Part shown: positions 3,343-62,115 of the stretch, piece after piece | Position numbering within the stretch: the stretch's first letter is position 1 | Layout of the letters: each line of letters begins with the position of its first letter | Assembly (NCBI GenBank): GCA_041662205.1 | Contig: JBAZSZ010000001.1 | Coordinates: forward strand, 295,978-359,977 | Direction: 5' to 3' | Origin: Minisyncoccota bacterium | Lineage (GTDB): Bacteria; Patescibacteriota; Minisyncoccia; Phycocordibacterales; UBA9973 | DNA: 64,000 nucleotides | Position numbers and translations under genes: made by a program | Notes under the pieces: model-generated | Seen by the model: only the letters and a program-made list of their open reading frames with translations | The model's database searches: none | What the model was told of the DNA's origin: nothing

Positions 3343-3910
3343 AAATCTTTTTGCGGTAAATACAAAAAACAACTGCTAAATTTATTATTATAAAATAGAT
3401 ATTGAAAGAATAAATAGAAAAAATCCAATTTTTAATAATCAATAAACCCAACATACTATTTAAAGCAGCTATCAAATATACAGTACTCGCTTCAGTCTCT
3501 GGAAATTTCCAAGATTTTATTAGCGTCGGTGTTGCCGCTAAGCCATCACTTAATATTGCAAAAAAAATAGAGATTCCTAAATTATGAGTAATCATATAAA
3601 GTATCAAGGATGTAATGGCAAGTGCTCCACAATATAAATCAAAAGCATTTATTTTCCAATAACCGTTTTTAACTAAAATTGCTGTAATAATAATTACTAA
3701 AGAAAAAAAGGCGTCCATAAATATCGGCAAACTTACAAGCCCCGCACCTGCTTTATATTGAAAAAATACTCCAATAAGCGGAGCCAAGACCCAAATAAAC
3801 CAAGAAACTAAATTAGGCTTTGCCCGCCCACTTATTATGCTTTTGATATAAGAAAAATGACCCAAAAAACTTAGAAGAATAACGATATAAATAATATTCT
3901 GAGAAATCAT
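3332..3910 (-). CDS. Multi-pass membrane protein of unknown function, immediately downstream of and coupled to dnaJ
   Basis: 192 aa, 5-6 hydrophobic helices; start 2 nt after dnaJ stop. Confidence 0.45.
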   Translation of the reverse strand: MISQNIIYIVILLSFLGHFSYIKSIISGRAKPNLVSWFIWVLAPLIGVFFQYKAGAGLVSLPIFMDAFFSLVIIITAILVKNGYWKINAFDLYCGALAITSLILYMITHNLGISIFFAILSDGLAATPTLIKSWKFPETEASTVYLIAALNSMLGLLIIKNWIFSIYSFNIYFIIINLAVVFCIYRKKIFKF

Positions 3911-3911
3911 T

Positions 3912-5012
3912 TTAGATCCCCTCTTTTTTGAGTTCTTCTATGAGGGTACGAGAAGAGCGGGAAAGTTTTGACGGAAGTTTGATGTTGAGTTTGATTAACA
4001 GATCCCCTCTTTTATTTTTTCCTGCAGGCACTCCTTTGCCACGAACACGAAGAATTTCATTAATAGAAACTCCCTCTGGAATCGTCACTTCAATTTCTCC
4101 GTCTAAAGTTTGAATGGGATATTTCACTCCCAATAAAGCGTCAGAAAGCTTCAAATTTAGATTCATTACCAAGTCATTGCCTTCACGCTTAAACACTGGG
4201 TGCGGGGCAACATTTATTTTTATATAAAGATCTCCTGTTGTTCCTTTAGAAACTGCCTCACCATAACCCGTCATGCGGATCATCTCACCATCACGTATGC
4301 CTGCTGGAATCACAATAGAGACCTCTTCTTCACGGCGAAGGACTCCTTTACCTTTGCATTTTTCACAAATTTCTTTTGGTACTTCACCCGCACCCAGACA
4401 AACTTCACAAAGTTTTGTACTAGCAATATTTCCAAAAATTGTTCTTTTTGATTCACGAATTTTTCCTTGACCATTGCAATGCTTACAGGTTTCCATTTTA
4501 GTCCCGACTTTTGCACCAGAGCCTCCACATGTCTGACAAGTGGAAGTTTTAGTAATTAAAACTTTTCTATTTACGCCAAAAATGGAATCTGCAAAAGAAA
4601 TTTGAATCTCAGTAGAAATATCTCGGCCTCGGCGCACCTCTTGCCTTCCTCCACCCATTCCACCTCCAAAGAAATCACTAAAAATATCATTCAGGTCAAA
4701 TTCTGCAGAACCATTTTGAAAACCTCCAAAACCTTGAGAGAAATCGAATCCTCCAAAACCTCCTTGCCTTGGGTCACCGTAGCCTCCTTGTTGTCCCATA
4801 TTTTCAAAACCTGATCCATATTGATCGTATTTTGAACGTTTGGCGTCATCAGAAAGCACTTGATAAGCTTCATTTGCTTGCTTGAATTTTGTTTCATTAC
4901 CACCCTTTTTATCGGGATGATATTTTTGCGCCAACTTATAAAAAGCCTTCTTAATTTCATCTTTGGAGGCAGTTTTTTCAACACCTAAAATGTTATAATA
5001 GTCTTTATTCAT
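3912..5012 (-). CDS. dnaJ: Chaperone DnaJ (J-domain, G/F-rich linker, 4x CxxCxGxG zinc-finger, C-terminal domain)
   Basis: [12 protein letters not shown]-domain; repeated CxxCxGxG motifs. Confidence 0.95.
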
Positions 5013-5027
5013 AAGGTTATTTTGCTA

Positions 5028-6545
5028 TTATATCATAGGTTCAGCCTCTTGTGAAGTCTTAGTTTTTGTTTTTAGATTTTCTTCTACTGCCTCGCCGGAA
5101 CCTTCTGTATCGACGGATTCTCCACTTACCTTTTTTCCTTTATTTTTTCCTTCAATAATCGCTTTTTCTTCTGCACTTCGAATAATGGTGGCTTCTTCTT
5201 CAGCAATAAGTTTCGCTGCATCACCTTTTGGTATTGAATATTTTCTGCGAGAAGCTGCTATGATCTCTTCTCTATAAGATGGATGAGTAGGTGGTAACAC
5301 CCGTAGAGTCTCCGCAGAAAAAGGATCATAAGATTCTCCATCAATGGTCATTTTGATATAAAATTCTGTAACTGCTAGATTGATCATATCTTTCACATCA
5401 AAGAGTGGAGCAAATTCCGGCTTCATTTTGACGGCATCCTCACCACCAATACGAAAAGTGATAACACTCCCGACATTACCCAGGACTGCTTGATGAACTT
5501 TTGGTAAAATCTGTCCGACATACTGATGCGCGATAGTTAAATTAAGCCCGTATTTACGAGCCTCAGATAAAATATTTTCAAAAGTTTGGGTAACGACGTT
5601 TTGAAACTCATCAACGTATAAATAAAAATCTTTACGTTCTCTTTCTGGTATAGCCGCACGTTCCATACCCGCTTGTTTTATTTTTGTTAAAAACATCGAA
5701 CCGAGAAAAGAAGAATTCTCCTCACCTAGTCGGCCTTTAGAAAGATTGATAAAGATTATTTTTTCTTGATTCATTAATTCACTAATATCAATTTTATTTT
5801 GTCTTTGGCCGAAAATATTTCGAAGCAATGGATCAGAAAGAAATTGTCCGAGTTTGTTTACAAGCGGGATAATGGCATCCGTATCAAATTTTTCAGACCA
5901 ATCAGCGAATTCAATAGCGAAGAATCTTTTGACCATGTCATCTGTAATATATTCCACCACTTTCTGTCTGTAATTTCTATCCGTCAACATTGAAATCATC
6001 CCACGCATGGTTGCATGAGGGTAATCCAAAAGTGCTAAACAAGTAAAACGAAAAACGTGTTCCAGACGAGGAGTCCAATTCGCTCCGAACTGTTTTTGAA
6101 AAACTTCAATCAACCCTTGAGTCAATTGAAATTTAAACATTGGATCGACATTTGCGAGCGGATTGAAAGATGCGGGAAATTCAGTATCTGGCGGATCTAT
6201 AATACAGACATCTTCAATACGTTCTTTTGGCACATAGTCTAACATTGCGTCTATTAATTCACCGTGTGGATCGATAATGCAAAGCCCATGTCCATACGAA
6301 ATGTCCTGCCGAAGCATTAGTTCCATAAGTTTTGATTTGCCAACTCCAGACTTTCCAACTATATAAAGATGCCTACGACGATCTACTCGTTTAATACCAA
6401 AAACGAATTTTTTCTCTTCTAATGAAGCGACGTAATTAGTTCGCCCGATAAAAGAAACATCATCAGGTTTTACTTTTCCAAAAACAGGTAGCTCTGGTGG
6501 TGGTGGTCCGTATTTTATTATTTGCACTCGATTCGGCTTGGACAT
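5028..6545 (-). CDS. TM-less TraD/VirD4/TrwB-family (type IV coupling protein-like) P-loop ATPase, paralog 1
   Basis: RRRHLYIVGKSGVGKS Walker A preceded by Arg cluster; IIDPHGEL; FNPL; Walker B DFYLYVDEFQN; TraG-D_C-like block LTIAHQYVGQI..GNVGSVITFRIGGEDA; no TM helices; start 15 nt downstream of stop... (stop 15 nt upstream of dnaJ start). Confidence 0.7.
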   Translation of the reverse strand: MSKPNRVQIIKYGPPPPELPVFGKVKPDDVSFIGRTNYVASLEEKKFVFGIKRVDRRRHLYIVGKSGVGKSKLMELMLRQDISYGHGLCIIDPHGELIDAMLDYVPKERIEDVCIIDPPDTEFPASFNPLANVDPMFKFQLTQGLIEVFQKQFGANWTPRLEHVFRFTCLALLDYPHATMRGMISMLTDRNYRQKVVEYITDDMVKRFFAIEFADWSEKFDTDAIIPLVNKLGQFLSDPLLRNIFGQRQNKIDISELMNQEKIIFINLSKGRLGEENSSFLGSMFLTKIKQAGMERAAIPERERKDFYLYVDEFQNVVTQTFENILSEARKYGLNLTIAHQYVGQILPKVHQAVLGNVGSVITFRIGGEDAVKMKPEFAPLFDVKDMINLAVTEFYIKMTIDGESYDPFSAETLRVLPPTHPSYREEIIAASRRKYSIPKGDAAKLIAEEEATIIRSAEEKAIIEGKNKGKKVSGESVDTEGSGEAVEENLKTKTKTSQEAEPMI

Positions 6546-6608: not shown

Positions 6609-8285
6609 TTAATATACCTCTTGCTGATAACACTTCTCGCAGTAGACAATCTCCGGCCTTTCTGGAGCAAAATTAGTGATAATTTTTTTCTGACATTTAG
6701 CACAATTACGATCCCAGAATTTATATGGACCTCGACGAATTACCCGATCTTGATGCCTGCAATAAAAACATTTTCTTGAAATTGGAATATTTATTTTTCG
6801 GTAAAATAAAAGTTCTTGATCTATAACCTTATAATTTCTTTTACAAGAAATACATTTTAAAATTTCACTCGTTATAGAATCCTCCACATCTTTTATGTGG
6901 TCAGGAATATCTTCTGTTTGTAATGTTTCTTTACCTTCTGTCTTTTGAATATCAACTTCCCATCTATAACCTTGCGCGAGAGCTTCTTCTTTTGAAAGGG
7001 GGAAATTTTCTTGAGCCATAGTTTCATTGTAGGCAAAAGGAGCAAGCTCATAGGATATCATTAATCCATATAAATCTAGATCAGTTAATTCTTTTATTAT
7101 TTTTTCCCTTAATCTTTCATACTCTTCTTTAGAATATTGCTTATTTAAAATAAAATATTGTCCATTTTTCAATCCATCACAACCAATACAGTTTTTGCAA
7201 TTCCTATTATAAAATCCATATAAAACATTACTGGAATTCTCTACTGCATAAGAACCAATAATATTATTCCCATACCCAGAAGCTACTACTTCGAGCAACT
7301 GTTCAGAGTTTATCCCATGACCAATTGTACCGATAGAATCTTTTATATGCTTTGACGAGTGAGTATGATGACAGTCTTCCCCATTGTTTATCTCAAAAGA
7401 TTTTTGAACATTTTTACACGAAAAAAGATAATCTCCCGTAGAATTTACAGTTTTTATATTATTATTTTCTCGCATTGGAAAATTTAAAATAAATTTCTCA
7501 AATTCTTTTTTAAATTCCTCTAATTTCTTATAAGATCCTAAAATATCACTCACTTTTTTAGTGTACTCATCTGCCCCCATCGGCTTATTTAAGAAATAGT
7601 GAGATTTATTATTCAAATTAACACAACCAAAACAATTTAAAACATTTCTACAATTAAAGACAAAACAAGAATCTACTGAACTGTTTATATTTTGACCATA
7701 AAGAATCCCAGAAGAATGTTGAATATTTATAGATTCGTAGCATCTTTCTACTTTTATTCCAAAATACAAATCACTAGAATCCTTGACATCTATTGCTCCT
7801 CTAGAATAAAGCACTTCCTCGGCTGGTCCAGTGTTGAAAACAAGATAACAATTCTTGCATCCACCAGCCATATTGATATACTCGCTATTTATGTTTGGAC
7901 CTGGACCAATAGAAATATAGGTAGTAATTTTAGGAACTTTTAATAAGAGCTCTTTATAGTGTTCTAAAAAAGATCGATTCTCATCAAAATCCATAGCATA
8001 ATCTCTCGCTTCCCATTTTTCAGAATAAAAACATTTTTCACAATAAATAACATAAGGGGATTTTGGATTATATATCGAAATAACATTTTTTTCACAGAGA
8101 GCGCATTTTCGTCCTGAATATAAACTCATCTCATTTCTAAATAAAGCGCGCATTATAAAACGACAATCTGGGCATATCTTTGGATTTGGTACCTTCATCT
8201 TTTCATAAAATCCAAGCTCGTCAGAGGAAAATGAAAAATCTTGTTTGCATTTTTTACAGTTTTTTATTTCTTTTATATTTTCCAT
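6609..8285 (-). CDS. Cys-rich multi-zinc-ribbon protein, paralog A (unknown function)
   Basis: 558 aa, about 40 Cys; N-terminal CxxC..FYxKxxVPxPxxCPxCR..RNExxLY..C module repeated near C-terminus; internal CxxCxxCxGC..NLxNK..NKQYSKEEY repeats; tail PERPEIVYCEKCYQQEVY; no signal peptide. Confidence 0.8.
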   Translation of the reverse strand: MENIKEIKNCKKCKQDFSFSSDELGFYEKMKVPNPKICPDCRFIMRALFRNEMSLYSGRKCALCEKNVISIYNPKSPYVIYCEKCFYSEKWEARDYAMDFDENRSFLEHYKELLLKVPKITTYISIGPGPNINSEYINMAGGCKNCYLVFNTGPAEEVLYSRGAIDVKDSSDLYFGIKVERCYESINIQHSSGILYGQNINSSVDSCFVFNCRNVLNCFGCVNLNNKSHYFLNKPMGADEYTKKVSDILGSYKKLEEFKKEFEKFILNFPMRENNNIKTVNSTGDYLFSCKNVQKSFEINNGEDCHHTHSSKHIKDSIGTIGHGINSEQLLEVVASGYGNNIIGSYAVENSSNVLYGFYNRNCKNCIGCDGLKNGQYFILNKQYSKEEYERLREKIIKELTDLDLYGLMISYELAPFAYNETMAQENFPLSKEEALAQGYRWEVDIQKTEGKETLQTEDIPDHIKDVEDSITSEILKCISCKRNYKVIDQELLFYRKINIPISRKCFYCRHQDRVIRRGPYKFWDRNCAKCQKKIITNFAPERPEIVYCEKCYQQEVY

Positions 8286-8313: not shown

Positions 8314-10065
8314 CTAGTATACTTCTTGCTGGTAACACTTCTCACAATACACTATCTCTGGTCGGTCAGGTGCATACGAAGTTTCAAATTCAACTTCACA
8401 TTTTTCATTGCCGTGAAAATGGTTCTCTTTGTCACACATGCAAGATCTATGCCAAATTTTCATAGGATTACGCATTTTTAGTCTATTTTCGTGACGACAC
8501 AAAAAACACAATCTGGGTAAAGGTACTCCGAGTTTTCGATATAAATTTAATTCATCTATAGTTATTTTATATGCTCCTCTGCAACAATTACTGGATTTTT
8601 CTTTATTATCACATCCAATAATTTCCTTCGTGATGGAATCTGTTACATCATCCAAACTAGACGGAAGGTCTTTAGCTTCTATTGTTGTTTGATACTCATT
8701 TACTTTTTTTTCACGCCATCGATAACCCATTTTGATTGCCTGCTCTTTGGAAAGAGGAAAATAATCTTGCGCCTGAGTTTCATTATAACAAAAAGTAGAA
8801 AGTTCACTAGGAAAAAATTCTCCATATTTATAGACAATTCCCCTCTTGTCCACATAAGGCACTTCATTCATCTGTTGTTCAATTTTTGGAATTAATTTTT
8901 CATATTCTTCTTTGGAATATTGTTTATTTAGAATACAATATTTCTTGTTTCGCACACCAATACAACCAAATAAATTTGAGCTTCCATGACAATTAAAAGA
9001 ATATTCAATATCATTTGAGCCATAAATCACACTACCAAAAAGATTACGAGAACCCCCTATTCCCGTATCAAAAACTTCATAAAGCATTTCGCCTTCCCCT
9101 ACTCCAGGACCAGAATCATAAGCATCTTTAAGACTTTTTACTGCCCAGTGTGAAAATTTTGCATCCTCTATGTCTCCAGTTGCGTCAAAACAAATTTTGC
9201 AATTTTTAGTACCTTCTAAATTATCGCCCGTTGAATCCACAGTCTTTATTTTAACAGCAAACCGATGAAGTGATTTTAGGCATATTTCTCTAAACTTATT
9301 TTTAAGTTCTTGGATAGTTCTATAATCCTTAAAACTATATTCTGCTATTTTTTTGTGATATTCTTCTCTAGAAAATTGCTCATTCCACATACAATATGAT
9401 TTATTGCGTAAATTAGTACAACCAAAACAATCTGTACATCCTACGCAATCATAAAGAAAATATGAATCTACACAACTTTTGCAATTTAGAGAATATAATA
9501 AATGATAGCTATCCGAGCAAAGCACGTCTTCATAACAAAGTTCAGAACGATTAACAACGTATAAATCTGCAGAATCTTTTGTTCCTGTAATTCTGTTTGC
9601 ATATAAAGTTCTTTCTATTCTCCAAGAACCGGAACACATATAGCTATCCTTACTAGCTTCCGCAACATTACAATAATCACTGTTTGTATCTTTTATATTT
9701 GAAAGAGATTGCAGAGGAATATTGTCTCTCAAATTTTTCCATTGTTCAAAAAAAGGATTTAAAAAATCATATTCTTTACCATACGAAAGTGGATCCCAGC
9801 CATCACCCCACCAAGCATCAGAACAATATACTGTAAGTTTTTCTTCTGGAGGTAAAAAAGAAATAAGCATTTCATTGTGTCCTGGCGCATCGCATTTTCT
9901 TTTAAATAAAGACATCTCATTTCGCCAAGTTAGACGCCGAATAGTTCTACACTCCGGACAAAAAGTCGGTGGAAGAACTTTTATCTTTTCATAAAAGTTA
10001 AAATCTTCCGGCTCTATAATAAAATCTTGTTTGCAGTTCTGACAGATCTTAGTTTCTGAATTCAT
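8314..10065 (-). CDS. Cys-rich multi-zinc-ribbon protein, paralog B
   Basis: 583 aa; same architecture as A; closest to paralog C; start 1 nt after ATPase-2 stop. Confidence 0.8.
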   Translation of the reverse strand: MNSETKICQNCKQDFIIEPEDFNFYEKIKVLPPTFCPECRTIRRLTWRNEMSLFKRKCDAPGHNEMLISFLPPEEKLTVYCSDAWWGDGWDPLSYGKEYDFLNPFFEQWKNLRDNIPLQSLSNIKDTNSDYCNVAEASKDSYMCSGSWRIERTLYANRITGTKDSADLYVVNRSELCYEDVLCSDSYHLLYSLNCKSCVDSYFLYDCVGCTDCFGCTNLRNKSYCMWNEQFSREEYHKKIAEYSFKDYRTIQELKNKFREICLKSLHRFAVKIKTVDSTGDNLEGTKNCKICFDATGDIEDAKFSHWAVKSLKDAYDSGPGVGEGEMLYEVFDTGIGGSRNLFGSVIYGSNDIEYSFNCHGSSNLFGCIGVRNKKYCILNKQYSKEEYEKLIPKIEQQMNEVPYVDKRGIVYKYGEFFPSELSTFCYNETQAQDYFPLSKEQAIKMGYRWREKKVNEYQTTIEAKDLPSSLDDVTDSITKEIIGCDNKEKSSNCCRGAYKITIDELNLYRKLGVPLPRLCFLCRHENRLKMRNPMKIWHRSCMCDKENHFHGNEKCEVEFETSYAPDRPEIVYCEKCYQQEVY

Positions 10066-10066
10066 A

Positions 10067-12028
10067 TTATTCTAAAATTTTTCTTAAAACATCTTCCGGC
10101 ACTTCTGGTGGATTAGATTTTTGAGACACAGGTGCAGGTGTGGGAGTAATATCCTTTTCTATTTTTCCCGATGTGGCAGTGGCAATCAAATCCTTTAATT
10201 TATTCATATCTTCTGCTGTAGCAGCACGATCATTTTTCATAGGAGGAATAAATTTTTTATTATCTTCATTTTTCTTTTTTAGGGAATCAAGAGAGATTGG
10301 TGCTGGCACAGTTTTATCTTCTACTACTATTTTATTTAAAACATTTTTCAATGACGAAGTATCTCTATTTATTGGATAAGTGGATTTAGGTCTGACAGGG
10401 GCTGGGACTTGTTTTGTGAAAACTTTCTTAAAGGTCTTTATTATTCCTGCAGGTTTTGTTGATACTGGAGCTTGTTGAAATTCGATACCCAAATCAGCTA
10501 ATGGTTTATAAAATTTAGATTCATCATATTTAATTTGATCTTGTCCTCTTTTTTCCACCTTAACTTCTCCAGATTTTATTTTTGCAATACATTCCTTACA
10601 ATAAGCAGCTCGGCCCGGCTCAGGCTTAAAAGGCACAGTTTTTTCTAATTTACAAAGTGAACAAATTACAGGGAATTTTTCTATATTTCCATTTGTAGTA
10701 AAAGTGTCATTACCTAATGACATTCCACTCCATTCATTGATTTCTCGCTCTACCGCCTCGCGGGACCTACAGTAAAGATCACGAGAAGATTTTATTACTT
10801 CTTCTTCCACTTTTTTATCACCGGACTTTACCATGGGCGGCAAGGTCTTAGCAGAAAATGGACGGGAGGTTACACCGTCAATCATTAATTTTAAATAAAT
10901 TTTATAGTTTGGTAAATTTACGATATCAGAAGGAGTAAATTCTGGATCAAATTCTTTTTCTAAAAAATCTGCGTCATCGGAACCAACACGAAAAACTATC
11001 ATTGTACCTACGTTACCAAAGACAGCATCACGCACTGCTGAGCTTTTATCCACCACTAGCTGCGCAGTGTATTGGTGGGCCACGGTTAGATTAAGCCTGT
11101 ACTTTCTAGCCTCAGATAAAATACCAGCAAAAGCATCTGTCACAAAGTTTTGAAATTCGTCCACATATAAATAAAAGTCTTTGCGATGTTCTTCGGGGAT
11201 ACGTACACGCTCCATGGCAGCCAGTTGAATCTTGGTAATGATCATTCCTCCCAAAAGACCAGAGTTGTCTTCACCGATACGCCCCTTAGAAACATTCACG
11301 AGAAAAATCTTCCCGTCATTCATAATATCAAAAATATTAATCGTGCTTTTAGATTGACCCACAACATTACGAATAATAGAGGTAGAAAGAAATTGTCCAA
11401 CCTTATTTTGAATCGGTGCGATAGCTTCATTACGAAATTTATCCTGCCAGGCTTCATACTCATGGACCCAAAAAGCCTTAATCACTGGGTCTTTCAAATT
11501 GGCAATTATTTTCTGACGATAATCTTTGTCCACCAGCATACGAGGAATTCCTAAAAGTGTCGTCCCTGGAGTATCGAGTAATGCTAAAATACAATTATTT
11601 AAAATATATTCCATTCGCGCACTCCAAGCATTCGCCCAGATTTTAGTAAAAATACCCATCAGTCCAGAAGCTACTAGATGTTTATATTGTGGATCAATTA
11701 ATTCTAAAACATTAAAACCGATATGGTAGTCTACATCTGCTGGATTAAAATAAACTACATCCTTCATTCGCTCTGGTGGAATAGCGGAAAGAACTCCTTC
11801 GACGAGTTCTCCATGCGGATCAACCACACAAACTCCCTCACCATTTTTAATGTTCTGAATAATCATATTGAACATCAGGACAGATTTACCTGAACCAGAT
11901 TTCCCTAGAATATAAACATGCTGACGTCTGTCTTTGCGCTTGATACCAAAAAGTTGATTTTTATCACGAAAAGTTGTTAGCCCAAGATAAGTAATGTCTT
12001 TTTTTATAGGCAATTCTGGAAGTTCCAT
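10067..12028 (-). CDS. TM-less TraD/VirD4-family P-loop ATPase, paralog 2, with C-terminal CxxC-x17-CxxC zinc ribbon and K/P-rich tail
   Basis: RRQHVYILGKSGSGKS, VVDPHGEL, FNVL, DFYLYVDEFQN, LTVAHQYTAQL; C-terminal ICSLCK..PFKPEPGRAAYCKEC resembles the PxRPxxxYCxKC tail of the Cys-rich paralogs. Confidence 0.7.
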   Translation of the reverse strand: MELPELPIKKDITYLGLTTFRDKNQLFGIKRKDRRQHVYILGKSGSGKSVLMFNMIIQNIKNGEGVCVVDPHGELVEGVLSAIPPERMKDVVYFNPADVDYHIGFNVLELIDPQYKHLVASGLMGIFTKIWANAWSARMEYILNNCILALLDTPGTTLLGIPRMLVDKDYRQKIIANLKDPVIKAFWVHEYEAWQDKFRNEAIAPIQNKVGQFLSTSIIRNVVGQSKSTINIFDIMNDGKIFLVNVSKGRIGEDNSGLLGGMIITKIQLAAMERVRIPEEHRKDFYLYVDEFQNFVTDAFAGILSEARKYRLNLTVAHQYTAQLVVDKSSAVRDAVFGNVGTMIVFRVGSDDADFLEKEFDPEFTPSDIVNLPNYKIYLKLMIDGVTSRPFSAKTLPPMVKSGDKKVEEEVIKSSRDLYCRSREAVEREINEWSGMSLGNDTFTTNGNIEKFPVICSLCKLEKTVPFKPEPGRAAYCKECIAKIKSGEVKVEKRGQDQIKYDESKFYKPLADLGIEFQQAPVSTKPAGIIKTFKKVFTKQVPAPVRPKSTYPINRDTSSLKNVLNKIVVEDKTVPAPISLDSLKKKNEDNKKFIPPMKNDRAATAEDMNKLKDLIATATSGKIEKDITPTPAPVSQKSNPPEVPEDVLRKILE

Positions 12029-13439: not shown

Positions 13440-15356
13440 TTATGCTTTTGATTCTCCGTCTTCAGAAGGTTTTTCTTTAAACTCTGCATCATGGACTTCA
13501 GGTGGTTGTTCTTCGGGAGTCGAAGGTCCTGTACTTGCTGAAGCATCAGTTCCCCCAGCTTTCGCCATCGCCTCCCCTATCTTAGACATTTCGGTAGAGA
13601 GCTCTTCGGTAGCTTTTTTGATCGCTTCTCCATCGGTGCCATCTTTTACCCCTCTCAAAGCAGTTATTTTTGCGTTTACTTCATCTTTTAATTCTACAGG
13701 TATTTTTTCTTCATTCTCTTTAAGAGCTTTTTCGGCAGTATAGATGATCATCTCTGCGGTATTTTTTACTTCTGCATTTTCTTTTTTCTTTTTATCTTCC
13801 TCTGCGTGAAGCTCTGCATCAGCTTGCATTTTTTTAATGTCTTCTTCTTTGAGCCCAGAACTTGCTTCAATTTTAATGGATTGGGTTTTTCCTGAAGCTT
13901 TGTCTTTAGCAGAAACATTTAGAATTCCATTCACATCTACATCAAAAGCAACTTCAATTTGAGGCATTCCGCGAGGTGCTGGTGGCACTCCATCTAAAAT
14001 AAATCTGCCGAGAGATTTATTATCGGACGCCATCGGACGCTCTCCCTGCACAATGTGTATTTCGACAGAAGTCTGATTATCGGCAGCCGTAGAAAATGTT
14101 TGAGATTTACTAGAAGGAATAGTGGTATTTCTTTCAATCAATTTTGTAGCCACTCCTCCCAAAGTCTCAATACCTAATGAAAGCGGTATCACATCGAGAA
14201 GTAATACATCCCGCACATCACCTTGCAACACACCAGCCTGAACGGCTGCACCGAGCGCCACAACTTCATCAGGGTTAATGGACATATTTGGAGCCTTACC
14301 GAAAAGATCTTGCACAGCAGATACAATAGCTGGCATTCTCGTCTGACCACCTACCATGATAATTTCATTTATTTCATTTATTTTGAATGGAGATGCGTCC
14401 AAAGCTCTCTTGGTAATCTTAATAGACAGATCAATATATTCTTTCGCTAGAGATTCCAACATTGCTCGAGACATTTTAAGTAAAAGATGTTTTGGTCCAG
14501 AGCTGTCTGAAGTTATGAATGGTATGTTGATCTCTGTTTCAGTAGTTGTAGAAAGTTCATGCTTAGCTTTTTCAGCAGCTTCTTTTAATCTTTGGTGCGC
14601 TAGAGGATCTTTTATAACATCAATGCCAGACTCTTTTTTATACTCTTCAGCAATCCAAGAAATAATTTTTCTATCAATGTCACCTCCACCCATATGACTG
14701 TCTCCATCGGTAGATTTTACTTCTATCACATCGTCACCTATTTCCAATACAGACACATCAAAGGTTCCTCCACCGAAATCGTATACAACAATCTTTTCAT
14801 TTTTCTTTTTATTAAAACCATAAGCAAGTGCTGCAGCTGTCGGCTCATTGATGATGCGTTTTACGTCAAGGCCAGCAATTGCTCCCGCGTCTTTGGTCGC
14901 TTTTCTTTGCGCATCATTAAAATATGCTGGCACGGTTATTATTGCTTCAGTAATCTTTTCTCCGAGCTTCGCCTCAACATCAGCCTTAATTTTTTGTAAA
15001 ACCATTGCAGAAATTTCTTCCGGTCGATAAAATTTATCTGACATTTTTATTTTTACTCCACCTCCGTCTCCTGTTTCAATTTTAAATGAAGCAGTCTCAC
15101 GATCTTTTTGCACTTCTGGATCATCAAACCTATGCCCCATATAACGCTTTATTTCAGCAATAGTATTTTCTGGATTTGTAACCGCTTGTCTTTTTGCCAG
15201 AAGGCCGACAATACGATCTCCATTTTTTGCAGTCGCCACGACAGAAGGCGTCGTGCGATTACCTTCCACATTCTCCACAATTTTTGGTGCACCACCCTCA
15301 ATGATAGCGACTGCTGAATTTGTTGTACCTAAATCTATACCTATTATTTTACTCAT
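13440..15356 (-). CDS. dnaK: Chaperone DnaK (Hsp70)
   Basis: [10 protein letters not shown].. N-terminus, [11 protein letters not shown]..., 638 aa full length. Confidence 0.97.
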
Positions 15357-15443
15357 ATATTTTATATGTTATTTATAATTTAACTTATATTTCGCGACCA
15401 CTAAAAACTTGTATAAATAGAGTATATATGATAGCGTATTAGT

Positions 15444-15950
15444 ATGTCAAGTTATTCCAAAAAAATACTTAAAAAGTTAACTGAAAGACCTGCAATTTCG
15501 ACAAAAGATCTAAAAGAAAAAGATGTAAGAACAACTTATGCCATTTCTCGTGCCTTAAAAAATCTAATAGAAAGCAAATGTGCTGAAATTCATGAATCAG
15601 GAAGACAAGATTATGTAAAAATTACTCCGCTTGGAAAAAATAAATTAAATACCTTGCTCTTAGAAAATGACGAAGCATTAGTCCCGCAAAATTGGGATGG
15701 ATTTTGGCGAATTATTTTACTAGACCTGCCAGAAAACAGAAAGGCTGAACGTGAATCTCTACGTTATCTTCTTAAAAAAGCTGGCTTCGTTTGTTTAAAA
15801 AATTCTGCGTGGATTTCCCCTTTCCCTTTTGAACATTTATTTACAAATATAAAGCGTGACCTAGACCTCACCACAGAAATGATGATCATCGTCACAGAAA
15901 ATATTGACGAAGAAAGTAAAAAAGTTTTATTTGAAACTTTCGGAAAATAA
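15444..15950 (+). CDS. PaaX-family-like transcriptional regulator (N-terminal wHTH + C-terminal Cas2-fold PaaX_C-like domain), divergent from dnaK
   Basis: NWDGFWRIILLDLPENRKAERESLRYLLKKAGFVCLKNSAWISP matches PaaX WDGKW..R..LR..L...GFG.L...VW.SP block. Confidence 0.6.
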   Translation: MSSYSKKILKKLTERPAISTKDLKEKDVRTTYAISRALKNLIESKCAEIHESGRQDYVKITPLGKNKLNTLLLENDEALVPQNWDGFWRIILLDLPENRKAERESLRYLLKKAGFVCLKNSAWISPFPFEHLFTNIKRDLDLTTEMMIIVTENIDEESKKVLFETFGK

Positions 15951-16013
15951 AAAATCTTTTAATAAACTATCCACAGGCTTACCTGCCTACGGCAGTGCCA
16001 AAGGCGACCAGGG

Positions 16014-17756
16014 CTAGTAAATCTCCTGTTGATAGCATTTTTCACAATAAACTATCTCTGGCCTCTCAGGCGCATAACTCGTTTCAAATTCTATTTCACA
16101 TTTACTTTCGTGAGTATGATTTTCTTTTTCACACATACAAGTTCTTTTCCATAATTTCCATGCTGGTAATTGATAAAACCTTTCATAATATCTACAATTG
16201 GGACACAAAATCGGGAGCGGTATTTTATTTTTCTTATAAAAATCAAGTTCAAAATTTGCTAAACGAAAAGCGATATTGCATTGATGAATACAACTTCCCT
16301 TGTGTGCACATTCTAATACTTCTCCTAAAATTTTATCATCTACTTCATCTATTGTATCGGGAATATTTTCTACAGGTATGGTAATCTGGAAATTCTTTAC
16401 ATCTTGCTCTAACCATCGATAACCGTTTTTTTCTACTTCTGTTTTAGTCATTGGATTAATTTCTTGGGCAAAAGTTTCGTTGTAAGCAAAAGGACAGACT
16501 TCTATAGGAAAAAATTCTCCATATTTATAAACTCTACCCGCCTTGTCCACAAAAGGTATATTTTCCATTTGTTTTATAATTTCTAAGCGAAGTTTATCAA
16601 ATTCATCTTTTGAACAAATTTTATTGAAAATTACATTTTCTTTATTTCTTATTCCAATACAACCAAATAAATTTGAGCTATTAATACAAGAATCAGTATA
16701 CTCCACATTGCTGACAGAACTAAAAGCGGAATGAGAAAATTTCACATTATAATCATTTAGAGATCCAGTAACATATTCATACATCAATTCTGACTTCATT
16801 GCCTGAGAAGAATCCATGGAATCCTTAAAAGACTCCAATACTCTATAACAGTATTTCAAATTTTCCGCATTGTAAACATCAAAACAATTTTGACAATTTT
16901 TTACATTTGAAAGATTATTTCCAGTAGCGTTTACTGAACGTACAATGTTAGTAAAACGATAAATAGATTTTTCTTTTATTTCTTTAAATTCCTTAAGAAA
17001 AACTTCCAGAGAATCCCTGCTTGATAAATTTAATCTTTCTTTTTCTTTTAAATATTCTTCTTTTGAATACTGCTTATTGCGAATATAAAATTCTTTATTA
17101 CGTAAATTGTAAGAAAGTAAGCAATTGCTACAGTTTACACAATCAACTAAAAAATAAGAATCTAAACAATTTTTTGAAAGTAATAAATACTGACAATTGT
17201 AATTTTTCTCACTTTGAATATTCTCATATAAATTTTGCCCTTCGTTAATATTTAAGCAATCAATAATGTCCGTAGACTTATCTACATTCTTTGAATAAAA
17301 AACATTTTCTGAACCCTTAACGACCGAAAATGATAAATAAACATTCTTAGACTCACCCGCATAATTTGTATAATCAGAGTTAATTACATTTCTATGCCAC
17401 AAAGCTAATCGAGGCACGACATTCATTAATTTATTAAATTGCTCAAAAAATGGTCTAGAAAAATCATAATCTCTACTAAAAGAAGTGGCTTCCCAACCAT
17501 CTCCAAACCAACATTCTCGACAATATACAGGGAAAGGCACGGATTCATGGTACATTGAAATAATGTTTTTCTTACACAAATCACATTTACGTTTATATAA
17601 AGTTCTTTCATTACGCCAAGCCATTCTCCTTTGCAACCTACACCAAGGACAAAAAGTAGGTGCGGGAACTTGTATCTTTTTGTAATAATTAAAATCTTCT
17701 GGCTCTATTTTAAAGTCTTTTTTGCAATTCTGGCAATTTTTAGTTTCACTTTTCAT
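16014..17756 (-). CDS. Cys-rich multi-zinc-ribbon protein, paralog C
   Basis: 580 aa; N-terminus CQNCKKDFKIEPEDFNYYKKIQVPAPTFCPWCR..WRNERTLYKRKC; tail FETSYAPERPEIVYCEKCYQQEIY; start 1 nt after paralog D stop. Confidence 0.8.
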   Translation of the reverse strand: MKSETKNCQNCKKDFKIEPEDFNYYKKIQVPAPTFCPWCRLQRRMAWRNERTLYKRKCDLCKKNIISMYHESVPFPVYCRECWFGDGWEATSFSRDYDFSRPFFEQFNKLMNVVPRLALWHRNVINSDYTNYAGESKNVYLSFSVVKGSENVFYSKNVDKSTDIIDCLNINEGQNLYENIQSEKNYNCQYLLLSKNCLDSYFLVDCVNCSNCLLSYNLRNKEFYIRNKQYSKEEYLKEKERLNLSSRDSLEVFLKEFKEIKEKSIYRFTNIVRSVNATGNNLSNVKNCQNCFDVYNAENLKYCYRVLESFKDSMDSSQAMKSELMYEYVTGSLNDYNVKFSHSAFSSVSNVEYTDSCINSSNLFGCIGIRNKENVIFNKICSKDEFDKLRLEIIKQMENIPFVDKAGRVYKYGEFFPIEVCPFAYNETFAQEINPMTKTEVEKNGYRWLEQDVKNFQITIPVENIPDTIDEVDDKILGEVLECAHKGSCIHQCNIAFRLANFELDFYKKNKIPLPILCPNCRYYERFYQLPAWKLWKRTCMCEKENHTHESKCEIEFETSYAPERPEIVYCEKCYQQEIY

Positions 17757-17757
17757 A

Positions 17758-19434
17758 TCAAGCTATATTTTGTTTATAACATTCTTCGCAAGCAATTTTC
17801 TGGTATCCCCATTCCGGCAAATAATATGCATCGACATCCTTTTTACAATAAAAACATTTATATTGATGTGCTTGCAAGATAGTCAAATATTTCAAACTAT
17901 TTTTTATTCGCACATCAAAATGATAACGTGGAAGTGGGATATTATTTTCTTTGTAAAAAGAAAGTTCATTTTGGGCAATATTGAAACGCCAGCCCGTTTC
18001 AGGGCAAATCAGTGCCTGAGTGATGATAGTATTCGGAACGTCTTTGATATCGTCAGGCAACTCCGCTGTAGGCATGCCGTCTACATGACTCTCTGTGACA
18101 TCCTCCCAATAACCGCCAAATTTTAAAATATCTTCTTTTTTAGTTTCTGGAAAATACAGAAAAGCAGTAGAAAAATTAAAAGGTCCCAAGCTCATGGAAT
18201 AAGGTAAAAATTTCCCATATTCTCCACTCTTTTTCATATCAGAAATTATCTTATTTTTTAAAGTTTCATATTCTTCTTTACTATACTGTTTGTTTAAAAT
18301 ACAATATTTCTTTTTCCCCAAACCCACACAACCAAAACAATATTCACATTCAAGACATAGATCTAAATATTCAGAATATCTTGAGGACGACCAACTGGAA
18401 TATTTGAGAGCATAACCACTTGGTTGGCAGGAACTACAATTGCCTGATACTTCTAAATACTGACAACCATTTATGTCGACGCAAGACTCTAATCCTGTGC
18501 CTCTGATACAGTTAGAGCAATCCTTAGAATCAGAGATTGTGAAACAATTTTGGCAATTTTTACAATCAATTAAGTAATCGCCAATGGAATTGAAAACTTT
18601 TAAATTGAAGTTCGGTCTATGCGCCACCTCATTTTTAATTATTTCTTTAAAATGTTTTTTAAGTTTTTGAATAGAATCATAAGAACCAAGATTAAATAAT
18701 TGGATTTTTTTATCATATTCCTCCTTAGAATACTGCACATTTTCTATACAATAGGATTTATTGCGAAGATTCCAACACATAAAACAATTTTGACAGTTTC
18801 GGCAATCATATAAAAAACTTGATTGTATGCAATCGCGGGAATGTTTCGAATAAAAAAGTTTGTAGGAATGATGACATTCAGAAGAATCAAAACATTTTTC
18901 ACTATTATAACAAACAACCACATCAATAGAATTTTTTACCCCTATATTCCTATATGAATAAAATAAATTTTCGCAATCTACCATTGAACGAGAAAGATAA
19001 CTATCCTTACAATTCCAAACATCATCACACCAATCACAACCTGTACTTTTAATACCATCTTGATGCGGACGAGGAACTTTCTCTTGAAGATTTTGTAATT
19101 GCTCAAAAAATAATTTTTTTTCGTCATAGTCTGCCCCATAATCCATCGCGTCCCACTTGTCGCTATACCACTCATTTAAAGTGTAAATCGGATATCTAGT
19201 CTTCTCTGGTAAAACGGTAATTAAACTTTCTCCAGAGAGATCTGATTTACCCCTGCGAAATTTTCCAAACATCCAAAAAGATAAATGTAATTTTACTCGA
19301 CAAAAAAAACAAAGTGTCGGTAATTCAATATCAACTTTTTTATATAAAGATAATTCTTCTTCTGTAATTAAGAAGTCTCGTTTGCAGTGTTCACAAACTC
19401 TAGTTTGCAGGTCCTTTGTATTCATATACATCAA
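17758..19434 (-). CDS. Cys-rich multi-zinc-ribbon protein, paralog D (most divergent)
   Basis: 558 aa; CEHCKRDF..LSLYKKVDIELPTLCFFCR; CRNCQNCFMCWNLRNKSYC..YSKEEY repeats; start overlaps grpE 3' end by about 25-35 nt. Confidence 0.75.
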   Translation of the reverse strand: MMYMNTKDLQTRVCEHCKRDFLITEEELSLYKKVDIELPTLCFFCRVKLHLSFWMFGKFRRGKSDLSGESLITVLPEKTRYPIYTLNEWYSDKWDAMDYGADYDEKKLFFEQLQNLQEKVPRPHQDGIKSTGCDWCDDVWNCKDSYLSRSMVDCENLFYSYRNIGVKNSIDVVVCYNSEKCFDSSECHHSYKLFYSKHSRDCIQSSFLYDCRNCQNCFMCWNLRNKSYCIENVQYSKEEYDKKIQLFNLGSYDSIQKLKKHFKEIIKNEVAHRPNFNLKVFNSIGDYLIDCKNCQNCFTISDSKDCSNCIRGTGLESCVDINGCQYLEVSGNCSSCQPSGYALKYSSWSSSRYSEYLDLCLECEYCFGCVGLGKKKYCILNKQYSKEEYETLKNKIISDMKKSGEYGKFLPYSMSLGPFNFSTAFLYFPETKKEDILKFGGYWEDVTESHVDGMPTAELPDDIKDVPNTIITQALICPETGWRFNIAQNELSFYKENNIPLPRYHFDVRIKNSLKYLTILQAHQYKCFYCKKDVDAYYLPEWGYQKIACEECYKQNIA

Positions 19435-19987
19435 CCCTCGCTGCGCGAATTACGCGCTCGCCTAGTTTGTAGCCTTTTTGAATTACATTTGCAACTTTGT
19501 GTTCTAACTCTTTTTTGTCTGTTTCTACCACATCAATAGATTGATGAATATTTGGATCAAAACTCTCTCCTACCTCGCCCATGGATTTAACCCCATATTC
19601 CTCAAAAATTGTATTCATCTGCGCGTAAATATATTCCACACCCTTTCGCCAATTTTCATCCACTTTCTCCCAAGCTTCCTTGTTCGCAAAAGCCATATTA
19701 AAACTATCAATCACAGAAAGGAAGCGAGTCAAAATCCTCTCTCGCATTGCCTCTGAAAAAAGTGCTTTTCTATCTTCTTCTTGTTTACGGTAATTCACAA
19801 AGTCCGCTCGCTCTTTTTGCCAACCAGTCAAATATTCTTCCTTTTCGGCCTTGCACGCCTTCAGATCGGCTCTAAATTTCTTTAAAGTTTTCTTTAAATC
19901 CTCTTCTCCATCTTCATTGAATTCAAACTCTAAAACTTCAGAAGTGTCTTCTTTTGGTTCTTCTTTTTTTTCTTCTTCGTCTGACAT
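19400..19987 (-). CDS. grpE: Nucleotide exchange factor GrpE
   Basis: acidic N-terminus, coiled coil, C-terminal VIQKGYKLGERVIRAARV GrpE signature. Confidence 0.9.
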   Translation of the reverse strand: MSDEEEKKEEPKEDTSEVLEFEFNEDGEEDLKKTLKKFRADLKACKAEKEEYLTGWQKERADFVNYRKQEEDRKALFSEAMRERILTRFLSVIDSFNMAFANKEAWEKVDENWRKGVEYIYAQMNTIFEEYGVKSMGEVGESFDPNIHQSIDVVETDKKELEHKVANVIQKGYKLGERVIRAARVDVYEYKGPAN

Positions 19988-33076: not shown

Positions 33077-34108
33077 TTACGCTATAGTATAAAATCCGTT
33101 TTTGTTTTTCTTGAAATATTTTGAATTAGCGAGATTCACTAAAATAGTATTCTTTTTGAAATATCTTTCTTTCATCACCCTTTTTACTATCTCATCCTTT
33201 GATAAGGGCTCCCCTTCTTTTTTAAGAATATCTTGGATGACTTCACGAGCAATACCTGACTTATAACCCCATTCAGCAAGAGCATATATTCCTCTACCAA
33301 CTAAAATAAAACGAGAATCTTTTATGAGCTCATTGTGACAAGTGGCGTAATGTATTTTTTTACCAAAAGTTTTAGAAATGGAATCTGCAACTTCTTTAAA
33401 ATGCATTGGCGAACCGTGACGTCTCATTATCAAAAAAGCATAATCTTTAACTCCCCGAGTACGAATATTCGGAGAAGAAGCCTTACCCCATTCTCCTAAT
33501 TCATTTTTGGCAATAGTCTTAGAAATAGAAAGCCATCTTTTAGCCATCTCTTCATTTTTATATTCTTCAGATATATCTTTCATGTGATCAAGGAACTTTT
33601 TTATCATTTCTGTTTCTGGAATCAGATCTTCATCTTTAAGACTTGCATAAAGTTTCCGAAGAGCCTCATGGACTTTATTGGCCATAGCATCATCGACACT
33701 GTAGCGAGTATGAAAATGTTCATCTTCACGATGTTTTTTAAAAACATCAGCTAATACCAAGAAAAAATTGATATGATTTTGGGTATTTTTATCTTTAGAA
33801 ATGTAAGGCAAAAATTCATGTTCGGCGACAATAGATCCTAAGTTGTGAACTATCTGCCTTAACTCATCAAAAATAGCTTGCTCATCTTTATAAGCATCAG
33901 ACTTTTTAATAAGATTAATGGCTGCCTCTTCAACTTGACGAACACGTTCCCTTGTAATTTTATATTTTTTTCCAATCTCTTCGAGAGTTTTTTTGCTACC
34001 ATCGGGAGTTAAACCAAAACGATTCATAATAACGTCCAAGGTACGATTGGGTAAATGTGAAGTTATTTTTTTGGTTATTTTTTGAGGTTTAAAAGTTATC
34101 GTTGACAT
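33077..34108 (-). CDS. Protein with N-terminal sigma-70 region-4-like HTH and C-terminal HARE-HTH domain
   Basis: TLEEIGKKYKITRERVRQVEEAAI (sigma r4.2-like); C-terminal HFKEVADSI...DSRFILVGRGIYALAEW matches HARE-HTH (..SRF..VGRG.Y.L.EW). Confidence 0.55.
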   Translation of the reverse strand: MSTITFKPQKITKKITSHLPNRTLDVIMNRFGLTPDGSKKTLEEIGKKYKITRERVRQVEEAAINLIKKSDAYKDEQAIFDELRQIVHNLGSIVAEHEFLPYISKDKNTQNHINFFLVLADVFKKHREDEHFHTRYSVDDAMANKVHEALRKLYASLKDEDLIPETEMIKKFLDHMKDISEEYKNEEMAKRWLSISKTIAKNELGEWGKASSPNIRTRGVKDYAFLIMRRHGSPMHFKEVADSISKTFGKKIHYATCHNELIKDSRFILVGRGIYALAEWGYKSGIAREVIQDILKKEGEPLSKDEIVKRVMKERYFKKNTILVNLANSKYFKKNKNGFYTIA

Positions 34109-36074: not shown

Positions 36075-36160
36075 GCGTCGGTGGTAGAGCGGTCAAATAC
36101 AAGGGACTGTAAATCCCTCGCCTTCGGGCTACGAAGGTTCGAATCCTTCCCGGCGCACCA
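36075..36160 (+). tRNA. tRNA-Tyr (anticodon GTA), class II long variable arm, CCA encoded
   Basis: acceptor GCGTCGG/CCGGCGC, anticodon stem AGGGA/TCCCT, loop CTGTAAA, T-loop TTCGAATC. Confidence 0.85.
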
Positions 36161-43936: not shown

Positions 43937-44008
43937 AGGCCTGGGGCGGAATCGAACCGCCGTATATTCCTTTTGCAGAGGAATGCCTTACCACTTGGCT
44001 ACCAGGCC
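43937..44008 (-). tRNA. tRNA-Cys (GCA)
   Basis: acceptor GGCCTGG/CCAGGCC, anticodon loop CTGCAAA, T-loop TTCGATT. Confidence 0.85.
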
Positions 44009-44046
44009 GAAATTTATTTACTAAATTTAAATAACTTAAAAACTTG

Positions 44047-44128
44047 TGCCGGGAGGGAGACTCGAACTCCCAAGGGTTGCCCCACTAGTTCCTAAGACTA
44101 GCGCGTATACCAATTCCGCCATCCCGGC
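44047..44128 (-). tRNA. tRNA-Leu (TAG), class II
   Basis: GCCGGGATGGCGGAATTGGTA..., anticodon stem CTAGT/ACTAG loop CTTAGGA, long variable arm. Confidence 0.8.
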
Positions 44129-44131
44129 ATG

Positions 44132-44204
44132 TGCGCCCTGAAGGGATCGAACCTTCGACCTTATCCTTAAGAGGGATCTGCTCTACCAGCTGAGCTAAGG
44201 GCGC
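44132..44204 (-). tRNA. tRNA-Lys (CTT)
   Basis: GCGCCCTTAGCTCAGCTGGTAGAGC..., anticodon loop CTCTTAA, T-loop TTCGATC. Confidence 0.75.
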
Positions 44205-44230
44205 AAAATTTTATTTTAAAAAACTCCTCT

Positions 44231-44313
44231 GTGCCCGAGGTGGGAATCGAACCCACATCCCTTGCGAGACACGATTTTAAGTCGTGCGCGTATACCGGTT
44301 CCGCCACTCGGGC
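44231..44313 (-). tRNA. tRNA-Leu (TAA), class II
   Basis: GCCCGAGTGGCGGAACCGGTA..., anticodon stem CACGA/TCGTG loop CTTAAAA. Confidence 0.8.
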
Positions 44314-61525: not shown

Positions 61526-62071
61526 TTACGTCAAATTGAAATGTTTTCGTAGGTTTTCATCATAATCTAATTTTTCCACTACCATATATCTTATATTTTT
61601 ACCAAAAGCCAAATCAGTTTTCAAAAGTTCAATGAATTCTGCACAATTGTAAGGATAAATCCAGACACTGCGTTGAAGCTGGATAAAACCAAAATCTTTT
61701 ATTTCCATTCGCAAAAGATTTCTTTTAGACCTGGCATTTTCCCAAACATCAAAAATAACCACTCTCCACTTGCCATCCCACTTAACATCTTTCTTTTTTT
61801 CTTTAATCTGATAATAAATAAGTCTTCTCTTCCCCTTCTCAGTCAAGGATAAAAATTGTTTTCCATTTTCAATTTCTATTTTAAGAAAACCGTCTTTTAC
61901 TAATTTTCTCGCCTTTTGGTTTAAATAATATTTTAGGTTATATTTTTTCTTTTGCTTTAAAAAGGGTTTTAAAATTTGTAAAGCATTAGGCGCAAGTACG
62001 GCTATAGCCAAAATACCAGTAGTGGCAACCGTCATTAAAATAACTCTTTTAAAATCAATCTTGTTTTTCAT
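61526..62071 (-). CDS. PaaX_C/Cas2-fold domain protein with N-terminal TM anchor (paralog of 15444-15950)
   Basis: WDGKWRVVIFDVWENARSKRNLLRMEIKDFGFIQLQRSVWIYP; N-terminal VILMTVATTGILAIAVLAPNAL. Confidence 0.55.
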   Translation of the reverse strand: MKNKIDFKRVILMTVATTGILAIAVLAPNALQILKPFLKQKKKYNLKYYLNQKARKLVKDGFLKIEIENGKQFLSLTEKGKRRLIYYQIKEKKKDVKWDGKWRVVIFDVWENARSKRNLLRMEIKDFGFIQLQRSVWIYPYNCAEFIELLKTDLAFGKNIRYMVVEKLDYDENLRKHFNLT

Positions 62072-62115
62072 AATTTTATTATACTATAAAACAAGACGAC
62101 CGCATCTTTTTACAA

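Follow-up and report, generated by a model that had tools for sequence, protein, structure and literature searches.

The dnaK/paaXL locus and the PaaXL protein

We analysed a 64,000-nucleotide stretch of DNA from a Minisyncoccota bacterium (contig JBAZSZ010000001.1, positions 295,978 to 359,977), hereafter called the window, and focused on a small gene, paaXL, that is transcribed divergently from the chaperone gene dnaK. The window has a GC content of 34%, and the proteins most similar to those it encodes are labelled Candidatus Paceibacterota and Nomurabacteria (Patescibacteria, or candidate phyla radiation [CPR]). paaXL is an open reading frame of 168 amino acids with an ATG start on the plus strand (15444-15950). 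Its presumed regulated target, dnaK, is an open reading frame on the minus strand (13440-15356), assigned from HSP70 Pfam matches of its orthologues in the related loci L001 and L004 and from the conserved pairing described below. The open reading frame coordinates agree with the divergent arrangement given in a preliminary description of this DNA: the gap is exactly 87 bp (15357-15443), and it holds an operator-like element together with predicted promoter elements. On the other side, grpE (19400-19987, minus strand) is convergent with paaXL and has its own short promoter region, which lacks the operator. Two cysteine-rich genes of about 570 amino acids each stand between paaXL and grpE, and a terminator-like hairpin (15971-15992, minus strand) separates paaXL from this convergent block. 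The window also contains dnaJ (3912-5012) and clpB (36164-38896).

The preliminary description had proposed that the product of paaXL combines a winged helix with a PaaX-like Cas2 fold, and three lines of evidence bore this out. First, the Pfam model PaaX_M (PF20803, "PaaX central Cas2-like domain") matched residues 82-159 with E=1.5e-19 and 70.3 bits against a cutoff of 24. Second, an AlphaFold2 model built from 66 sequences, with a predicted local distance difference test score of 80.6, placed a winged helix at the N-terminus, composed of H1 (residues 3-14), H2 (20-23), a recognition helix (28-43), a beta-hairpin wing (47-60) and H4 (62-74), followed after a linker by a Cas2-like domain (residues 88-166) of ferredoxin-like beta-alpha-beta-beta-alpha-beta topology. 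Third, the best PDB matches returned by Foldseek spanned both domains and were E. coli PaaX (8a39), a Jannaschia PaaX-like protein (3l09) and Rv0674 (3kfw). A single-sequence PDB search with the Cas2-like domain was uninformative. By sequence the winged helix is weak, with sub-threshold matches to MarR (E=0.026, 14.9 bits against a cutoff of 24.6) and DUF6293_C (E=0.0088), and no match to any N-terminal Pfam model of PaaX was reported at E up to 10. These results establish the fold and domain content of PaaXL. One detail of the earlier account had to be corrected: the WDGxW signature, which had been assigned to the C-terminus of PaaX, belongs to the middle, Cas2-like domain. The C-terminal domain of PaaX is absent from PaaXL, as PaaX_C gave no Pfam match at E up to 10 and the chain ends at residue 168, directly after the Cas2-like domain.

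Conservation across 68 orthologues was highest in the Cas2-like domain (mean 0.89, compared with 0.55-0.70 in the winged helix). Residue D94 at the end of beta1 is nearly invariant, and it lies where we presume the metal-binding aspartate of Cas2 to be. The recognition-helix motif YAITRSLK is retained in all orthologues, down to 49% identity. We inspected co-variation between the recognition helix and operator variants by eye only, and both were too conserved to inform.

The high conservation of this domain and its near-invariant D94 could be explained if the Cas2-like domain were an active nuclease, or a toxin or defence module, with the winged helix merely targeting it or autoregulating it. 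A weak sequence similarity to Cas2 over beta1-alpha1 also fits such a role (E=0.03-0.11 for PaaXL, including E=0.03 for the PADLOC Cas2 model, and E=2.6e-4 for the membrane-anchored paralogue described below). PaaXL scored below the cutoff of the Cas2 model TIGR01573 (12.8 against 24.5), and it differs from Cas2 in being fused to a winged helix, although it shares the ferredoxin-like topology. In addition, no cas gene, partner antitoxin or defence-family match was significant among the scanned neighbouring open reading frames (CRISPR arrays were not specifically searched), paaXL is single-copy and pinned to dnaK across the lineage, and its best structural matches are PaaX repressors. We consider a nuclease or toxin very improbable. 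A role in defence or in phage biology was likewise rejected, as only weak winged-helix and Cas2 matches turned up. The Cas2-like domain may nevertheless do more than dimerise, for example by sensing a partner or a signal.

Conserved pairing with dnaK and a palindrome between the two genes

We sampled one genome per GTDB species, which yielded 73 loci with paaXL relatives at 36-80% identity. The 5' end of dnaK lay upstream on the opposite strand in 66 of them (49-80% protein identity), and the other seven were truncated contigs or a distant paralogue. The distance between the two genes was at most 350 bp in 54 of the 66 loci and exactly 87 bp in 13 species-level loci. Downstream, 44 of the 66 had grpE in convergent orientation on the minus strand, separated from paaXL by zero to four cysteine-rich paralogues. 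The divergent unit itself varied in a few cases. It was a grpE-dnaK operon in L066 and a gene for a membrane J-domain protein (4870-5742, 290 amino acids) with dnaK downstream in L057. The most divergent relatives carried a conserved gene of 93 amino acids (MVDPTKVDF...) divergent from paaXL, again with dnaK downstream (L067 5532-5813, L068 981-1262, L071 5453-5734). We conclude that the pairing with dnaK, first seen in a single genome, is conserved synteny. In two further loci an IS200/Y1-transposase-like gene is inserted directly after the conserved ATGTCAA of paaXL (L072 5214-5969, L074 5245-5976), which parts the promoter and operator from the paaXL coding region.

A search for a conserved operator motif across the related genomes identified a palindrome over the shared promoter region. 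In the window this operator-like element covers 15382-15415, with the core TTTCGCGACCACTAAA (TTTCGCG-AC-CACTAAA) at 15390-15405 and its centre at 15397/15398. An intergenic alignment of 56-64 distinct loci showed that the family palindrome has a 13-2-13 layout, CAAGTATTTCGYG-NN-CRCGAAATACTTG, and is perfect or near-perfect in many loci, with L040 (GCAAGTTTTTCGTGGTCACGAAATACTTGTC) and L043 as examples of perfect symmetry. The operator pattern across loci reads TTTMGYG-NN-CRCKAAA with CAAGT arms. The window copy (15382-15413), AACTTATATTTCGCG-AC-CACTAAAAACTTGTA, is degenerate. The preliminary description had reported no recognisable CIRCE inverted repeat in the 87-bp region; the region does hold an inverted repeat of another kind, a degenerate copy of the conserved palindrome, which keeps 8 of 15 dyad positions.

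Within the sequences scanned, the site is specific to this locus. With a 34-column weight matrix, each locus gave a single site, which scored 24-51 bits; elsewhere on both strands of the roughly 800 kb scanned, no score exceeded 12 bits. The 16-nt core has a single exact match in the window, and exact and two-mismatch searches for the operator found only the dnaK/paaXL site. Its position is also constrained on one side. The operator lies about 62 nt before the paaXL ATG in nearly all loci, including those where dnaK has drifted away, whereas the stretch that separates it from dnaK ranges from 87 to more than 300 bp through insertions. These alignments and searches establish a conserved site that is dyad-symmetric, unique among the sequences scanned and kept at a constant spacing from the start of paaXL. 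In the stretch from the operator to dnaK, eleven loci (L010, L012, L014, L028, L031, L034, L037, L038, L043, L052 and L054) contain GC-rich, hairpin-forming repeats (CCCGACGTTTCAGTCGGGACCCGAC..., AATCCCGATCCGATAATCGGGGTT, GGCTCGCCGTAGC...GGCGGC). They look like miniature inverted-repeat transposable elements, which would account for the variable length of the spacer.

We then compared the operator with the third-codon positions in the first 80 codons of dnaK in 64 loci. Information content was 1.33 bits per column for the operator (1.48 for the core) and 0.66 for the third-codon positions, and mean pairwise identity was 72% and 46%, respectively. Because the operator columns exceed dnaK third-codon positions in conservation, we conclude from the alignment that the element is under purifying selection. 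The adjacent paaXL product is the simplest candidate for a protein that binds it: the site keeps its spacing to paaXL, the recognition-helix motif is retained alongside the operator, and three paralogue loci have upstream palindromes of their own (see below).

A palindrome in this position might instead act as RNA, for example if the dnaK leader formed a hairpin or thermometer at its 5' end, with the PaaXL protein unrelated to it. The perfect palindromes could form stems of 12-13 bp, and a dnaK mRNA made from the minus-strand promoter-like site TTGACA-18-TATACT, described below, would begin with the palindrome. The pattern of mismatches argues against this reading. The non-Watson-Crick cells of the dyad comprised 154 non-wobble, 53 A.C and 43 G.T cells, with wobble enrichment on neither strand, and the operator letters themselves are conserved, beyond what pairing alone would preserve. 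Moreover, the dnaK-side RNA of the window is unstructured (minimum free energy -1.5 kcal/mol, z +1.48), a search of the element against Rfam matched no family, and a long stretch of variable length would separate the hairpin from the dnaK start codon. We rejected an RNA element on the mismatch spectrum, the folding energy and the Rfam result, and we give this alternative very little weight. Since the mismatches are mostly non-wobble, folding is weak, Rfam gave no match and conservation is at the level of letters, the sequence evidence favours a protein-binding DNA site.

Promoter-like elements overlap the palindrome. The predicted paaXL promoter (15409-15437, plus strand) has a -35 hexamer, TTGTAT, in the right operator arm (15409-15414), a 17-nt spacer, a TG at 15429-15430 and a -10 hexamer, TAGCGT, at 15432-15437; the paaXL ATG in the window follows this -10 by 6 nt. 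Across loci the right arm reads TTGTAT or TTGTCA and is followed after 17 nt by an extended -10 (TGnTAGnnT or TAATAT) and 6-7 nt later by the ATG. Because the ATG falls 6-7 nt after the -10, the paaXL mRNA is probably leaderless. A Shine-Dalgarno-like motif precedes only 8 of 61 genes in the window, and an extended -10 (TGnTAAAAT or TATAAT) lies a few nucleotides before the ATG of several, including grpE, dnaJ, TraG-like genes and the paaXL paralogue. This suggests that leaderless or very short-leader mRNAs are widespread in the window.

Transcription toward dnaK could start from either of two places. In one subgroup and in the most divergent group, neither of which is the window's own, the left arm reads TTGCTA or TTGTCA and is followed after 17 nt by a conserved TATAAT facing dnaK, so that in these loci both -35 boxes would fall inside the operator. 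In the window's subgroup the left operator arm is degenerate. An alternative or additional promoter-like site directed at dnaK lies at 15421-15450 on the minus strand, with TTGACA (15450-15445), an 18-nt spacer and TATACT (15426-15421). No other site in the region fits the sigma-70 consensus as well (11 of 12 positions), and its TTGACA overlaps the paaXL start codon. From it, a dnaK mRNA starting at about 15414 is plausible, with the operator at +1 to +33. Either geometry would let one bound dimer hinder both transcription units. The start of paaXL, ATGTCAAG (15444-15451), is itself conserved at the nucleotide level in 55 of 69 loci, and it is kept although residue 3 alternates between serine and arginine and the proteins vary in N-terminal length. 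Its minus-strand reading, CTTGACAT, is a consensus -35 located 18 nt from TATACT, and the sequence resembles the outer arm of the operator (CAAG). It could be conserved as a promoter directed at dnaK, as a third half-site, or through a constraint that a leaderless mRNA imposes.

The arrangement also bears on which gene the palindrome governs. PaaXL could be only an autoregulator, with the palindrome controlling its own promoter and dnaK a conserved neighbour outside its control. The fixed register of the operator to the paaXL start, set against the variable distance to dnaK, fits this idea, as do the degenerate dnaK-side arm and -35 of the window's subgroup and the palindromes found upstream of paralogues that are not linked to dnaK. 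It accounts poorly for the fact that the pairing with dnaK, or with grpE-dnaK or J-protein-dnaK, is kept in 66 species-level genomes despite other rearrangements. In one subgroup, furthermore, the left arm carries a -35 that is 17 nt from the conserved TATAAT facing dnaK, and the alternative dnaK promoter would transcribe through the operator. We regard autoregulation alone as unlikely. A second possibility, that PaaXL activates dnaK or acts as a dual regulator instead of repressing it, we judge improbable. Instead of lying upstream of the -35, the palindrome coincides with predicted -35 elements or with the first part of the transcribed region, a geometry typical of repression.

Comparison with known regulators and the extent of control

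PaaX is the phenylacetyl-CoA-responsive repressor of the paa genes, and PaaXL resembles it in having the Cas2-like PaaX_M domain, preceded by a winged helix that aligns with PaaX in structure but not in sequence. PaaXL differs in being half the size, with neither PaaX_C nor the domain for the CoA ligand, and in being linked to dnaK, grpE and cysteine-rich genes, not to paa catabolic genes. Against the PaaX equivalog model TIGR02277 it scored 27.9 bits and failed the cutoff of 264.55, with only residues 51-158 aligning, to positions 54-158 of the 279-position model. PaaX represses its own promoter, where it hinders RNA polymerase, and its operator is TGATTC-N27-GAATCA (PMC9493321). The paaXL operator, in contrast, is a compact 13-2-13 palindrome. 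Because the C-terminal domain is missing, the equivalog cutoff is failed, and operator and genomic context both differ, we conclude on these sequence grounds that PaaXL, although it shares the fold of PaaX, is not itself one.

Several dedicated repressors of chaperone genes offer a second comparison. HrcA is a winged-helix repressor, encoded beside grpE and dnaK, that acts on an inverted repeat at the chaperone promoter. In L066, paaXL stands directly upstream of grpE-dnaK, the usual place of hrcA. PaaXL has no HrcA domain (neither PF01628 nor PF03444 matched it), its gene is divergent and not the first of an operon, its operator is unrelated to the controlling inverted repeat of chaperone expression (CIRCE), TTAGCACTC-N9-GAGTGCTAA, and its site was not found at the other chaperone genes of the window. 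HspR with its HspR-associated inverted repeat (HAIR), CtsR and RheA are small repressors encoded in or beside their chaperone operon, with feedback or intrinsic thermosensing. Their folds belong to the MerR, CtsR and TetR families, and their operators differ from that of paaXL. PaaXL is analogous to them, and to HrcA, only as a small putative repressor encoded beside chaperone genes. Finally, its divergent, apparently autorepressor-like arrangement recalls regulators of the MarR type, from which, as from PadR, it would differ in dimerising by a Cas2-like alpha/beta domain and not by the MarR helical bundle.

The preliminary description had noted that neither HrcA nor CIRCE is recognisable at this locus, and both observations held. 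We found no match to CIRCE with up to three mismatches anywhere in the window, and no HrcA family among the scanned window open reading frames of at least 300 amino acids (dnaK, a MurE-like frame and a SecA fragment were left out). An HrcA query, which Pfam validated as a positive control (E=1.9e-71), returned nothing at E<1 against six-frame open reading frames of the window and 81 loci (865 kb). Because this validated query came back empty, we conclude that, as far as these sequences reach, hrcA is not in the dnaK/grpE neighbourhood of any of these genomes.

How far would control by PaaXL extend? In a scan of metagenomes with a 23-nt pattern, at least 50 matches adjoined paaXL, dnaK or grpE, all at 32 bits or more. 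Among the matches listed, 70 were unlinked to these genes; their scores were low, with a median of about 10, and most of them came from high-GC contigs. Just one unlinked match among those listed exceeded 30 bits (L132), and it falls within an unrelated, Wzz-like coding sequence. Because the operator is missing at grpE, dnaJ and clpB in the window and the unlinked metagenome matches score low, the sequence evidence points to a dedicated switch for dnaK, plus paaXL itself, and not to a global heat-shock regulon. The earlier proposal that paaXL encodes a regulator of the chaperone locus is therefore upheld in part: the fold, the pairing with dnaK and the palindrome over the promoters speak for it, and the general heat-shock role does not follow.

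A candidate dnaK switch and its family

We propose that PaaXL is probably a dimeric, autoregulated repressor dedicated to dnaK that binds the palindromic operator. In this model two PaaXL chains would form a small transcription factor, each chain combining a MarR-like winged helix with a PaaX/Cas2-like domain, through which, by analogy with PaaX, they would dimerise. The dimer would bind the palindrome centred at 15397/15398. The predicted -35 hexamers of both divergent promoters lie in its outer arms or directly beside them, and the bound dimer would thus repress dnaK as well as its own, probably leaderless, gene. Some relatives would have the grpE-dnaK or the J-protein-dnaK operon as the target. 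Release of PaaXL would de-repress dnaK. Binding to this site and the repressive sign of the regulation are what we infer, and the signal for release may be heat, unfolded protein or feedback from DnaK. PaaXL would then occupy, in these Patescibacteria, the chromosomal position that hrcA has in other bacteria.

Several observations weigh against this proposal. The dyad in the window is weak, at 8 of 15 positions compared with a median of 10 and a maximum of 13 among the loci, and the left -35 is lost in the window copy. If dnaK were transcribed from the strong TTGACA-18-TATACT site, the operator would fall within its leader and not over its -35, and all the promoter hexamers are tentative assignments by consensus in a genome of 34% GC. 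In the window grpE, dnaJ and clpB all lack the operator, so a broad heat-shock role is not indicated. With the C-terminal domain of PaaX missing, PaaXL has no evident sensor or ligand domain, and the stronger conservation of its Cas2-like domain relative to the winged helix hints at an unexplained second function.

The surroundings of paaXL contain other genes of note. The cysteine-rich family, whose members have about 560-585 amino acids, has four copies in the window, all on the minus strand (6609-8285, 8314-10065, 16014-17756 and 17758-19434). In relatives (L001-L078), zero to four tandem copies occur between grpE and paaXL and more stand beside TraG/VirD4-like ATPases. The family has more than 5,388 homologues, all annotated as hypothetical and from Paceibacterota. 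Pfam detected only treble-clef zinc fingers near the termini of one copy. An AlphaFold2 model with a predicted template modelling score of 0.81 had no PDB match below E=0.29 and a faint resemblance to a left-handed beta-helix. Two type IV coupling ATPases of the TraG/VirD4/TrwB type (10067-12028 and 5028-6545, both minus strand) flank cysteine-rich genes between dnaJ and dnaK, and one of them has a treble-clef zinc finger (zf_Tbcl_2). Elsewhere in the window, a gene at 33077-34108 (minus strand) encodes a protein of 343 amino acids with an unusual transcription-related architecture, in which sigma-70 region 4 and HARE-HTH occur together with a weak match to a Rok winged helix. Four tRNA genes are clustered at 43937-44313 (minus strand), and a single tRNA gene (36075-36157, plus strand) is directly downstream of clpB.

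The window also encodes a second PaaX_M protein, at 61526-62071 on the minus strand, which is not linked to dnaK. The preliminary description had called it a membrane-anchored paralogue, in agreement with our results. It is 28% identical to PaaXL (E=4e-17), and near its N-terminus residues 10-28 form a hydrophobic segment (Kyte-Doolittle 2.24) that is kept in 110 of 114 homologues and absent from the dnaK-linked type. The gene lies downstream of secA in the window and in L079. In three loci, palindromes with a CGRYCG centre occur directly upstream of the paralogue, before leaderless-looking promoters: the window has GCGGTCG followed by CTTGT and TATAAT (62072-62115), L079 has two CGATCG-centred arms (3895-3995), and L081 has the palindrome AACGGCCGTT, with arms AGAGAAACAGTAACGG|CCGTTACTGTTTCTCT (3950-3985). 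This pattern suggests family-wide autoregulation through CGRYCG-centred sites. Such autoregulation would be odd for a protein with an N-terminal anchor. The short family of winged helix plus PaaX_M proteins, mostly of 180-200 amino acids, comprises 2,472 clusters at 50% identity (E<=1e-3), or 348 at 1e-10, and the dnaK-linked orthogroup is a tight subset of it, with 10 clusters at 1e-30.

A broader scenario is possible, and we offer it tentatively. An unrecognised class of chaperone-gene repressor that joins a winged helix to a Cas2 fold may have taken control of dnaK from HrcA in Nomurabacteria-like Patescibacteria, with the Cas2-like domain as a stress sensor that works by thermolabile dimerisation or by titration by DnaK or unfolded proteins. 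The short PaaX_M family of about 2,500 clusters, including its membrane-anchored members, might then be a major uncharacterised family of CPR transcription factors, each with its own CGRYCG-centred palindrome. Our full-text literature searches found no paper that links PaaX-like proteins or HrcA to the control of chaperones in Patescibacteria/CPR, and to our knowledge regulation in these organisms is almost unexplored. The locus offers a testable candidate pair of protein and operator, a protein of 168 amino acids and a palindrome of 28-34 bp, with a central chaperone gene as the target. If the proposal is correct, PaaXL would bring a new combination of folds to the dedicated heat-shock repressors (HrcA, HspR, CtsR, RheA and Phr), and a function could be assigned to a widespread family now annotated as hypothetical or PaaX-like. 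Genetic tools for these organisms would also gain a first defined module of promoter and operator, one that is apparently leaderless.

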